Of a stretch of 64,000 nucleotides of DNA, positions 53,053-54,830 are shown one piece after another. Origin of the DNA: a virus. Position 1 is the stretch's first letter; each line of letters begins with the position of its first letter. The stretch spans positions 1 through 64,000 of IMG/VR virus record IMGVR_UViG_3300050025_000126; one strand, written 5' to 3'. The translations under genes and the position numbers were made by a program. Under the pieces are notes generated by a model. The model saw only the letters and a program-made list of their open reading frames with translations. It was not told the DNA's origin and ran no database searches.

Positions 53053-53529
53053 CTACTTCTTGTTCTTTTTGGCAAGCAATTTCTTTGTACGCTTTGTGAT
53101 TTCTAGGTCTACGAACAACCTGGCCATACGTAGCCGCTTGGGTTCTTCAAATGCGTCAAAAAACCACAAATAAAACAAGGCCTTCTCAATGTTCCTAGGT
53201 GCCTTCCCTACGATGGCGACAATCTTATTACCGCTCTGGTGGTTAAGGCACGAAGAGTCTTGCTTCCAGCGATTCTTTTTGTCTCCCTTACGGAACCTAA
53301 GGGTCTTTCCTGTCTGTTGAAAGTATTCCCTATTGACATACCAACGGGCCTTCTTCAAATCCTCTAGGGGGCTCCATTTGTTTTCAAAACGGAACAGATA
53401 CTTAAAGGCGTTCCCAGGATTAAATCCCATATATCCACACATTTCAATTGCTTCTATACCAGAAGGGTGCGAGGTATAATGCGCTGGGTGGTTTACGGGA
53501 TTGTTGACGAGCTTAGACTTTTTGGCCAT
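53053..53529 (-). CDS. DUF3310 (SaV-like) protein
   Basis: VNHPAHYT…GNAFKYLFR…EDLKKARWY; leaderless after TTTACA-16-TATAAT (53537-53564). Confidence 0.85.
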   Translation of the reverse strand: MAKKSKLVNNPVNHPAHYTSHPSGIEAIEMCGYMGFNPGNAFKYLFRFENKWSPLEDLKKARWYVNREYFQQTGKTLRFRKGDKKNRWKQDSSCLNHQSGNKIVAIVGKAPRNIEKALFYLWFFDAFEEPKRLRMARLFVDLEITKRTKKLLAKKNKK

Positions 53530-53569
53530 ACTGGTAATTATACTCCGTTTGTTGAAATTGTAAAGCAAA

Positions 53570-53720
53570 AGCCTGAGGTAGGGATTGCACCTACACCGTC
53601 GTCGGTTCTGGCCTACGCCTTGATTGGATACTTGGGCCGAGGCCTTGCGCCTGTCAAGGTTGGTAGGATTACTAAGACGAAAGTTCCCTTAAGCCGCTAG
53701 CAGCACTTCGGAACTCAGTT
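53570..53720 (-). ncRNA. tRNA-like RNA (T arm + acceptor-like closure, long body)
   Basis: GTAGG-TGCAATC-CCTAC T arm followed by CTCAGGC; 5' ACTGAG partly complementary. Confidence 0.45.
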
Positions 53721-53722
53721 CG

Positions 53723-53844
53723 TGTACAGGTTTGGAATCGAACCAAAAATTCCACCGGTTCAAGGTGGTGATTTACCTCTGCGTATCTGTAGATGTGGGT
53801 GACTATAGATTCCACAACCCAGATTATCTTTAATCTACCTGCAC
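53723..53844 (-). tRNA. aberrant tRNA with ~50-nt D-loop insertion (anticodon GAA by register, ambiguous)
   Basis: Acceptor GTGCAGG/CCTGTAC, D stem GATT/AATC, anticodon arm CCACC-TTGAACC-GGTGG, T arm TTTGG-TTCGATT-CCAAA. Confidence 0.65.
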
Positions 53845-53853
53845 GTATTAAAT

Positions 53854-53915
53854 TGGTGCGGAACAGCGTCTTATACGGGGCGATAGCGCCTATCTCATAT
53901 AGGTCCGATGTTCCG
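53854..53915 (-). ncRNA. 62-nt acceptor-stem mimic ending ACCA
   Basis: CGGAACA/TGTTCCG stem then CACCA; inner CCTAT/ATAGG hairpin; no T loop. Confidence 0.4.
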
Positions 53916-53917
53916 TT

Positions 53918-54018
53918 TGGGCAGGAGGAAGGAATCGAACCTTCGGTAGAGCGTATTCGTTAGAATCTTGCTCTGGCGGTCGTAATGCTGCTGTGTCTAC
54001 CACTTCACCACTCCTGCC
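53918..54018 (-). tRNA. degenerate class II tRNA-like gene
   Basis: GGCAGGAG/CTCCTGCC acceptor, Leu-type D arm GTGAAGTGGTAGACAC, T arm GAAGG-TTCGATT-CCTTC, long variable arm, defective anticodon arm. Confidence 0.6.
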
Positions 54019-54022
54019 ATAT

Positions 54023-54155
54023 TTGCCCTCTTGTAGCTTTTTATCCGGATTAGTTATGCTACGACTGTAAGGTCGGTAAACGTCATTCCTTACTGTTCTG
54101 CGGATGCTCTCCAGCTGTCAATGACCGACTGGCATATCTACCACCGCAGGGGCAA
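54023..54155 (-). ncRNA. multi-stem structured RNA
   Basis: Closing TTGCCC/GGGCAA; internal CTGCGG/CCGCAG, GTAAGG/CCTTAC, GTAGC/GCTAC stems. Confidence 0.5.
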
Positions 54156-54161
54156 TGTTAA

Positions 54162-54410
54162 TTACTTCTTTGCAATCGGATTAAACAGACTGAACCCAAT
54201 AAAGTAAATAGGTACAACTACCGTCTCTACCAAAAGAGCTGTCCAAATAATATTTCCTACGCTTACCTCATAGCGGATTGTGGGGTCTTTGTTTTCGTCC
54301 TTGTTCAGTAGGCCATATGTAGGCTGACACTTACCTTCGATTACCTTTGGTTCTCCACACCCAACCATTAGACAGGCGCTTAGAACCACGGCAGCAATCA
54401 ACTTCTTCAT
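54162..54410 (-). CDS. small lipoprotein
   Basis: MKK signal, LMVGC lipobox, C-terminal TM. Confidence 0.7.
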   Translation of the reverse strand: MKKLIAAVVLSACLMVGCGEPKVIEGKCQPTYGLLNKDENKDPTIRYEVSVGNIIWTALLVETVVVPIYFIGFSLFNPIAKK

Positions 54411-54628
54411 TACTCTACCACCGGCTCTTCCACAACCTTCTTGGCCCGTGTCTTGACAGGCACTCCAGTTGCTGCACTGCGAAGCTCATACATCCTCTTG
54501 AGGCCCATACGGCTACCATGCTTGAGAGCCAGGGCTTCGTTGACGTCCTTTACAGAGCCGCCAGCCTTAAACGCCGCTAGGGCTTCTGCTTCTCGTTCTT
54601 CTACTACATTCTTTGCTAATCGTCCCAT
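54410..54628 (-). CDS. small putative DNA-binding protein
   Basis: Basic helical 72 aa; promoter TTGACA-16-TATAAT at 54651-54678. Confidence 0.55.
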   Translation of the reverse strand: MGRLAKNVVEEREAEALAAFKAGGSVKDVNEALALKHGSRMGLKRMYELRSAATGVPVKTRAKKVVEEPVVE

Positions 54629-54674
54629 TTTACTTCCTTTCGATTTTGTAATTATATCAGGTTTCTTTTTGTTG

Positions 54675-54830
54675 TCAACCTACGTTTTCGGATTCAGCCG
54701 CCAGCACCTTAGTACCGAGCATTGCGTCAAGCTGGGCCTGTTGCTCCTTGGTTAAGGGTTCTCCTAGCTTTGGAAAACATCGCAAAACATCGTTCTTCTT
54801 TAGGTTCTTTGGTACACTTGTTTTTCCCAT
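54675..54830 (-). CDS. hypothetical 51-aa protein
   Basis: AAGGAG RBS; MGKTSVPKNLKKND…; below ORF-track cutoff. Confidence 0.55.
   Translation of the reverse strand: MGKTSVPKNLKKNDVLRCFPKLGEPLTKEQQAQLDAMLGTKVLAAESENVG

Follow-up and report, generated by a model that had tools for sequence, protein, structure and literature searches.

A probable operon of tRNA-derived non-coding RNAs in an uncultured phage from peat and permafrost metagenomes

The genomic locus described here lies in the IMG/VR virus record IMGVR_UViG_3300050025_000126, of which the first 64 kb (64,000 nucleotides (nt), referred to as the window) were analysed. The full record comprises 107,276 bases and is estimated to be 65% complete. 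The sequencing runs that contain this stretch are peat and permafrost metagenomes, with no RNA run listed among them, and the phage is uncultured. Between the stop codon of the small open reading frame (ORF) orf82 (54162) and the start codon (ATG, 53526) of a DUF3310 gene, which is followed by a DNA ligase and an HNH endonuclease, the minus strand carries a gap of 635 bases (53527-54161) in which no credible ORF was found. The initial annotation, made from the sequence alone, had placed five abutting structured RNAs here and considered none of them a canonical transfer RNA (tRNA). Folding of the gap confirmed the five minus-strand units, termed E1 to E5 (Table 1), and their earlier description proved correct in both respects. 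The spacers are 5 nt (E1-E2), 3 nt (E2-E3), 9 nt (E3-E4) and 4 nt (E4-E5) long. Taken together with the comparisons presented below, the gap probably represents an operon of tRNA-derived non-coding RNAs that is transcribed early. No fewer than three of the RNAs (E2, E3 and E5) appear functional and selected for their shape, and none of the five looks like a working decoder.

Table 1 Features of the RNA array and its surroundings (positions in the window)
Feature	Position	Strand	Characteristics
E1, predicted multi-stem RNA	54023..54155	-	Outer helix UUGCCC/GGGCAA, inner 52-nt mini-cloverleaf, two hairpins
E2, class II, tRNA-Leu-shaped RNA	53920..54017	-	Rfam tRNA 37.6 bits, above gathering score
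E3, 62-nt irregular hairpin	53854..53916	-	A1xC72 mismatch, 7-bp terminal helix, encoded A-CCA tail (end GCACCA)
E4, tRNA-like RNA, lineage-specific	53723..53844	-	7/7 acceptor helix GUGCAGG/CCUGUAC, G3.U70, A73
E5, 147-nt tRNA-shaped four-way junction	53573..53718	-	5-bp closure stacked on T arm (loop UGCAAUC)
Sigma-70 promoter, consensus TTGACA-16 nt-TG-TATAAT	54651..54678	-	12/12 hexamer matches; heads orf72-orf82-RNA array
Second promoter TTTACA-16 nt-TATAAT (putative)	53537..53564	-	Directly after E5; ahead of DUF3310-DNA ligase
orf72, small conserved protein ahead of the RNA array	54410..54628	-	Homologues in L057 and L128
orf82, 82-amino-acid lineage-specific insert between orf72 and array	54162..54410	-	Direct repeat; X4 contig; no ORF counterpart in L128
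DUF3310 gene, downstream anchor of the module	53053..53526	-	Pfam PF11753; 62% identical to the L057 copy, 86% to the L128 copy

Relatives were identified with a ligase profile (metagenome loci) and a DUF3310 profile (IMG/VR loci). Three of them share the locus, namely L128, L057 (ligase 46% identical) and L004 (ligase 80% identical), the contig of which ends inside the array. A module of promoter, orf72 homologue, RNA array, second promoter and DUF3310 is common to the window, L128 and L057, and the contents of the array vary between relatives. The L057 units follow in the order E2, E3 and E5. The seven-unit array of L128 (1715-2450) includes a canonical tRNA-Asn(GUU) of 83 nt with a long variable arm, a tRNA-Tyr, an E5 orthologue, leucine-type look-alikes (approximately 1799-1897, 1905-2007 and 2017-2116) and a tRNA-like unit with an 8-nt T loop that ends in GCACCAAC (approximately 1722-1797). 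No match to the array was obtained with blastn among 50,697 GenBank phages, and no close cultured relative was found, the best tblastn match of the ligase being 35% identical. Scans of viral contigs with single proteins found nothing, and a further locus recovered with the ligase profile (L003) has no RNA array.

Searches with single sequences (nhmmer) were too insensitive. Covariance models were built from the window sequences with hand-drawn structures (R1 for E5, R2 for E3 and R3 for E2), and these found full-length homologues only in the relatives. Because such homologues exist, E2, E3 and E5 can be regarded, on comparative grounds, as more than chance folds.

For E5, R1 matches L128 (2298-2448; 97.4 bits, E value 4e-23) and L057 (2481-2662; 43.1 bits, E value 3e-8). 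Comparison of the three phages shows two-sided changes in 21 of 38 pairs (at most 4 in slid controls), with 95.5% of the cells paired. A hairpin (H1) with a conserved palindromic loop, GCUAGC, occupies the D-arm position, a 90-nt arm (P0-P1-P2-P3) occupies the anticodon position, and there is no variable region. Within the long arm, the tip is variable and an asymmetric internal loop (CGC opposite CAAGNAU) is conserved; the two strands of this loop pair via GG/CC, replaced by AC/GU in L128. Invariant columns are more frequent among unpaired positions (39 of 69) than among paired ones (22 of 71). In the window, L128 and L057 alike, E5 is the last RNA and lies directly before a U-rich tract and the next promoter. 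A scan for the E5 pattern gave no match in viral contigs and none in GTDB genomes.

The E2 family is represented by more copies. R3 matches two of the look-alikes in L128 (2017-2116, 57.5 bits; 1905-2007, 46.4 bits) and one unit in L057 (2320-2412, 40.1 bits), with compensatory change in 19 of 24 pairs (at most 7 in slid controls). The acceptor, D, long variable and T helices are retained throughout. E2 itself has a leucine-type D arm and a conserved variable arm of 27 nt, and in the Rfam alignment 40 nt replace its anticodon arm. The arm at the anticodon position has an AxC mismatch in its stem and an 8-nt loop, CAUUACGA, without U33. This loop differs in every copy of the family (CAUUACGA, GUGAAAAA, AUUUA and ACUAA), and in the L057 copy, which likewise has no U33, a C-G pair closes it to a pentaloop. 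E2-type RNAs thus appear to be tRNA-shaped yet not selected for decoding.

E3 is a bare hairpin without a T arm (z score of the fold -2.45). Its 3' end resembles the acceptor strand, A73 and CCA of phage tRNA-Leu (compare L089); in the canonical tRNAs of the genome, CCA is not part of the gene. R2 matches L057 (2414-2475; 40.7 bits, E value 4e-7). The final 19 nt are identical in both phages, and both have the A1xC72 mismatch and the ACCA end. A tandem G.A in E3, a K-turn candidate, is altered in L057, where the G is replaced by A. The E3 pattern was found at 39 loci in viral contigs, all of them coding or chance matches except for a normal tRNA-Leu(UAA) in L089. None of four matches in GTDB genomes is credible, the sole one inspected (L125) lying within a lysyl-tRNA synthetase-like ORF. 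A second CCA-tailed minihelix is present in L004 (29-66), with a 7-bp helix (UUGUGCC/GGCAUGA), a CxC mismatch and ACCA, i.e. with the same end design as E3; it was not detected by R2.

The retention of these three RNAs bears on the possibility that an ordinary phage tRNA cluster has decayed into this array and that the look-alikes are pseudogenes. Third codon positions of DUF3310, the best-conserved flanking gene, are 32% identical between the window and L057, which corresponds to saturation; nucleotide identity is 86% for E3, 67% for E2 and 62% for E5. Since compensatory changes maintain the pairs while neutral sites are saturated, E2, E3 and E5 do not appear to be decaying pseudogenes, and decay is rejected for them on this comparison. 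The higher conservation of unpaired motifs than of stems in E5 also argues against decay, as does a strain in run X2 with 12 differences over 1.7 kb, none of which falls in the 635-base array. The covariation in related phages that the initial annotation had named as a check is accordingly present in E5 and the E2 family, and its preference for function over simple decay holds for E2, E3 and E5, whereas E1 and E4 are not distinguished from decay or chance. In favour of decay are the absence of a normal tRNA score in all five units and the canonical tRNAs at the same locus in relatives (Asn and Tyr in L128, Tyr and Ile in L004), together with the state of E1 and E4 described next. As an explanation of the whole array, decay is considered improbable.

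E1 folds better than most shuffled sequences (z score of the minimum free energy -2.24; 2 of 200 shuffles as good) and has no Rfam match. In E4, which has a perfect anticodon arm (loop UUGAACC, C37, anticodon GAA) and a perfect canonical T arm, the normal D arm is replaced by a 12-bp hairpin of approximately 40 nt, and a D loop with G18-G19 is missing; E4 may have arisen recently as a look-alike, or it may be a tRNA that has been damaged.

Several observations weigh against a functional array selected for shape. Homologues of E1 and E4 were not found in L057, L128 or L004. In run X4, a low-depth 158-nt contig joins 54136 to 54414 and lacks orf82 and the start of E1; the 5' closing strands of E1 are thereby removed and neither of its outer helices can form, which makes E1 doubtful as a unit. 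The array end of L004 holds a canonical tRNA-Tyr and tRNA-Ile at the position of E5, and because L004 is the closest relative by ligase, no single RNA seems indispensable. In E3, a compensatory change is seen in only 1 of 20 pairs, because both strands are almost invariant, and the likeness between the two lineages may stem from recent exchange. The counts of compensatory changes derive from two to three sequences per fold in alignments fitted to the hand-drawn structures, so that they favour these structures and are not of R-scape grade. Finally, the array is not adjacent to RNA-repair or defence-related genes.

A further possibility is that E2 and/or E4 work as unusual adaptors; they would then be charged and would decode, e.g. 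as suppressor or frameshift tRNAs with loops of 8 nt or with odd loop bases. Rfam and ARAGORN were both named in the initial annotation as means of checking the units. Against the Rfam tRNA family (RF00005, gathering score 29 bits), E2 passes, E4 as a plain tRNA remains below with 24.3 bits, and E1, E3 and E5 give no match at E values up to 10; at the same limit, no other Rfam family matches the array. ARAGORN made two calls (Phe-gaa; Gly-acc, or Leu-caa with an intron), both judged to be forced solutions, and found no transfer-messenger RNA in the window or the genome. The intron-bearing tRNA-Leu(caa), i(35,13), was rejected for E2, as the proposed intron cuts a conserved arm and is unsupported in relatives. 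A histidine-type reading of E2 (G-1:C73) was rejected as well because G-1:C73 is not conserved in L057. Features compatible with adaptors are the 8-nt loops of E2 and its L128 orthologue, the CUA read by the L057 copy together with a suppressor-type call by ARAGORN, and, in E4, the intact anticodon arm with GAA and the acceptor with G3.U70 and A73. However, an anticodon loop of 7 nt that combines U33 with a purine at position 37 is absent from all five units. The missing U33 in E2 and its L057 copy, the loop of the latter reduced to 5 nt, the different loop sequence of each family member, and C37 and the lack of a G18-G19 D loop in E4 all speak against decoding. The window ORFs are open under the standard code, and a normal tRNA-Phe(GAA) is available in a second cluster of the genome. 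A role as adaptors is therefore very improbable.

The promoter upstream of orf72 has an equivalent TTGACA/TATAAT pair in L128, upstream of the orf72 homologue. The second promoter, which appears from its position to drive DUF3310 and the DNA ligase, has counterparts after E5 in L057 and L128 (-10 TACAAT in L128) and, in L004, after tRNA-Ile (-35 TTTAAA). The U-rich tract upstream of it may also be an end of the RNA transcript. No good terminator was found between the two promoters. Given the flanking promoters and the lack of a good terminator between them, the simplest reading is that the array forms the distal portion of an early transcription unit. The polycistron proposed in the initial annotation is a reasonable reading of the upstream promoter, the terminator-free interval and the second promoter after E5.

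Starting at the promoter (54678), host RNA polymerase would thus transcribe orf72, orf82 and then the array. The units could then be excised by host tRNA-processing enzymes, with RNase P acting on the 5' sides and RNase E/Z and exonucleases on the 3' sides, since each unit ends in an acceptor-like helix, which in E2, E4 and E5 is stacked on a T arm. Bacterial RNase P contacts 3'-RCCA. The encoded ACCA of E3 would supply this contact, which a bare hairpin would probably need. As tRNA mimics, the released RNAs might occupy tRNA-binding host proteins and act in trans via their conserved loops.

Alternatively, the units could serve as processing punctuation only, i.e. as entry sites for RNase P/Z and as stable end-caps that both set and protect the ends of neighbouring transcripts, without a function in trans and with E5 as a terminator-like end. 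Selection on helices and not on the anticodon-position loops would fit such a role, as would the position of E5, which always abuts the next promoter with a conserved U-rich tract, and the degradation of the E2 elbow and loop motifs at different places in each phage. Five consecutive units are not needed for punctuation, however, and neither the 90-nt arm of E5 with its strictly conserved internal loop and the GCUAGC loop nor the near-invariance of E3 on both strands is explained by it. The conserved loops of E5 and the near-invariance of E3 indicate sequence-specific partners instead. Punctuation alone is considered rather unlikely, and an operon of RNAs that act in their own right is preferred.

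The protein-coding genes ahead of the array differ in their conservation. orf72 is 65% identical to L057 1556-1768 and 62% identical to L128 1505-1714 (approximately 70 amino acids). It has no Pfam or PHROG family, and its Atlas leads are weak (<0.9) and point to resolvase- or transposase-type helix-turn-helix domains. The protein could be a partner or regulator of the array RNAs. The N-terminus of orf82 is lipoprotein-like. On either side of orf82 plus the first 19 nt of E1 (54137-54423) lies a perfect direct repeat of 10 nt, CGGUGGUAGA (TCTACCACCG on the plus strand). orf82 looks like a small inserted gene (moron), or else the region is a deletion between repeats. In L057, a perfect 16-nt inverted repeat, GCATGCTTATCCGGTT (1884-1899 and 2215-2230), flanks a 93-amino-acid ORF that splits the RNA array; one arm-like copy, CAACCGGATAGGCATG, is found in L004. 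This repeat may delimit a mobile cassette or form a long-range RNA helix. The conserved E5 strand CUUGACAGGCGC (53649-53658) is complementary to orf72 mRNA over 10 nt (54452-54461) and to orf82 mRNA over 9 nt (54371-54379). A role as antisense regulator of the two genes was rejected, as L057 has no counterpart and approximately one chance match is expected.

A second tRNA array is located outside the window (genome 82110-82980; L002 1610-2480, minus strand) and is preceded by a TTGACA-17-TAGTAT promoter. Three good tRNAs and further look-alikes are present in it; its units comprise tRNA-Phe(GAA), tRNA-Arg(CCU), a class II tRNA with the anticodon UAU, a degenerate tRNA and non-tRNA units that end in GCACCAAU. 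This motif occurs 7 times on the array strand compared with 1.6 expected, and 3 of the 7 occurrences are at the ends of such RNAs. Two different UAU tRNAs (L004 272-345 and L002 1617-1704) have the anticodon loop UCUAUAA in common, in which position 33 is C and not the U that is found almost universally; the variable arm of one of the two is long, an unusual trait in an isoleucine tRNA. The second array is followed by Rnl2-like (PF09414) and Rnl1-like (PF09511) RNA ligases, and the phage evidently lives with tRNA damage. A CCA-adding enzyme, RtcB and Ro60 were not found in the 107-kb record, which is 65% complete.

The usual interpretation of tRNA clusters in phages is that they help with codon usage or provide spares against anticodon nucleases. 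The present array suggests that phages also keep tRNA-derived RNAs for uses other than translation, as no unit looks like a working decoder, yet three appear to be selected for their shape. The repair ligases elsewhere in the genome make a decoy role plausible. It is a tentative guess that tRNA-directed defence enzymes would be the targets, for example anticodon nucleases or toxins modifying the CCA end.

Among known systems, ordinary phage tRNA clusters are similar in that the locus holds canonical tRNAs in relatives and E2 passes the Rfam tRNA threshold. They differ from the array, in which conservation does not extend to the loops at the anticodon position. The t-elements of plant mitochondria and other organelle transcripts are tRNA-shaped signals for RNase P/Z without decoding; to our knowledge, they have been described from organelles and not from phages. 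The conserved loops of E5 and the sequence constancy of E3 go beyond such a punctuation role.

The YrlA / Y RNAs of bacteria and mycobacteriophages (RF02553) are non-coding tRNA mimics with T-arm and acceptor-like elements, and YrlA of M. smegmatis is cleaved by RNase P and gains CCA (Chen et al. 2014, PMC4201824). The units could accordingly be scaffolds that tether a Ro60-type or other RNA-surveillance or repair protein, and the RNA ligases beside the second array would be in line with this. In contrast to YrlA, the array has no match to RF02553 at E values up to 10, and its units keep the normal tRNA order and not the permuted T-AS-D order (T-closed stem-D). With regard to the Ro-binding motif GNCGAAN0-1G, none of the 38 GNCGAAG sites of the window lies inside 53527-54161, the one-base-longer form of the motif having been checked by eye only. 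No match to PF05731 (TROVE/Ro60) was obtained in the 107-kb record, 65% complete, and control genomes were matched. A YrlA-like scaffold is extremely improbable.

The array further resembles the tail of the T4 tRNA operon, the rnaC and rnaD RNAs of which have been known for 50 years, with their roles unknown since the 1970s. In the T4 record (NC_000866 70908-71171), a tRNA-Arg is followed by rnaD (119 nt) and rnaC (139 nt) with spacers of 1-6 nt. rnaD (species 2) ends in GGCGCACC-A, followed by AAUU, and the fold of rnaC (species 1) combines an acceptor-like closure of 7 bp, which stacks on a canonical T arm, with two additional long arms. Neither RNAC nor RNAD has a known role (PMC3014915, PMC9697503). 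Both systems consist of abutting units inside a tRNA operon (spacers of 3-9 nt here), and both follow the order of a tRNA, an RNA ending in GCACC-A followed by A/U, and a look-alike of approximately 140 nt. This order is seen in L057 (E2, E3, E5), whereas in the window E4 is intercalated between E3 and E5. Like rnaC, E5 has an acceptor-like closure on a T arm, with enlarged arms where a tRNA would have its D and anticodon arms. However, E3 is half as long as rnaD, and E5 differs from rnaC in arm layout and T loop (UGCAAUC). R1 gives only 7.5 bits (E value 0.44) against rnaC, and R2 gives 7.4 bits against rnaD, its alignment being confined to the CGCACCAA tail. The T4 RNAs count as late, in contrast to an array behind a host-type early promoter, and the two phages are unrelated, as the low identity of the best ligase match in cultured phages indicates. 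Since the models miss rnaC and rnaD and Rfam has no family for them, the likeness is architectural only and no homology is detected. There is a low probability that E2-E3-E5 are the counterpart of the T4 tRNA-rnaD-rnaC tail, as part of an ancient and widespread phage module in which a non-decoding tRNA shape, a helix with a CCA tail and a giant cloverleaf mimic tRNA towards host tRNA-directed enzymes, e.g. as decoys for defence toxins that cleave anticodon loops or modify CCA ends; if true, this would at last provide a function for the long-known T4 RNAs. By analogy, E2, E3 and E5 are best described as selected tRNA look-alikes akin to rnaC and rnaD. The T4-like arrangement in an unrelated peat phage suggests a general class, for which the array supplies covarying sequences, conserved loops and defined helix ends to guide experiments.

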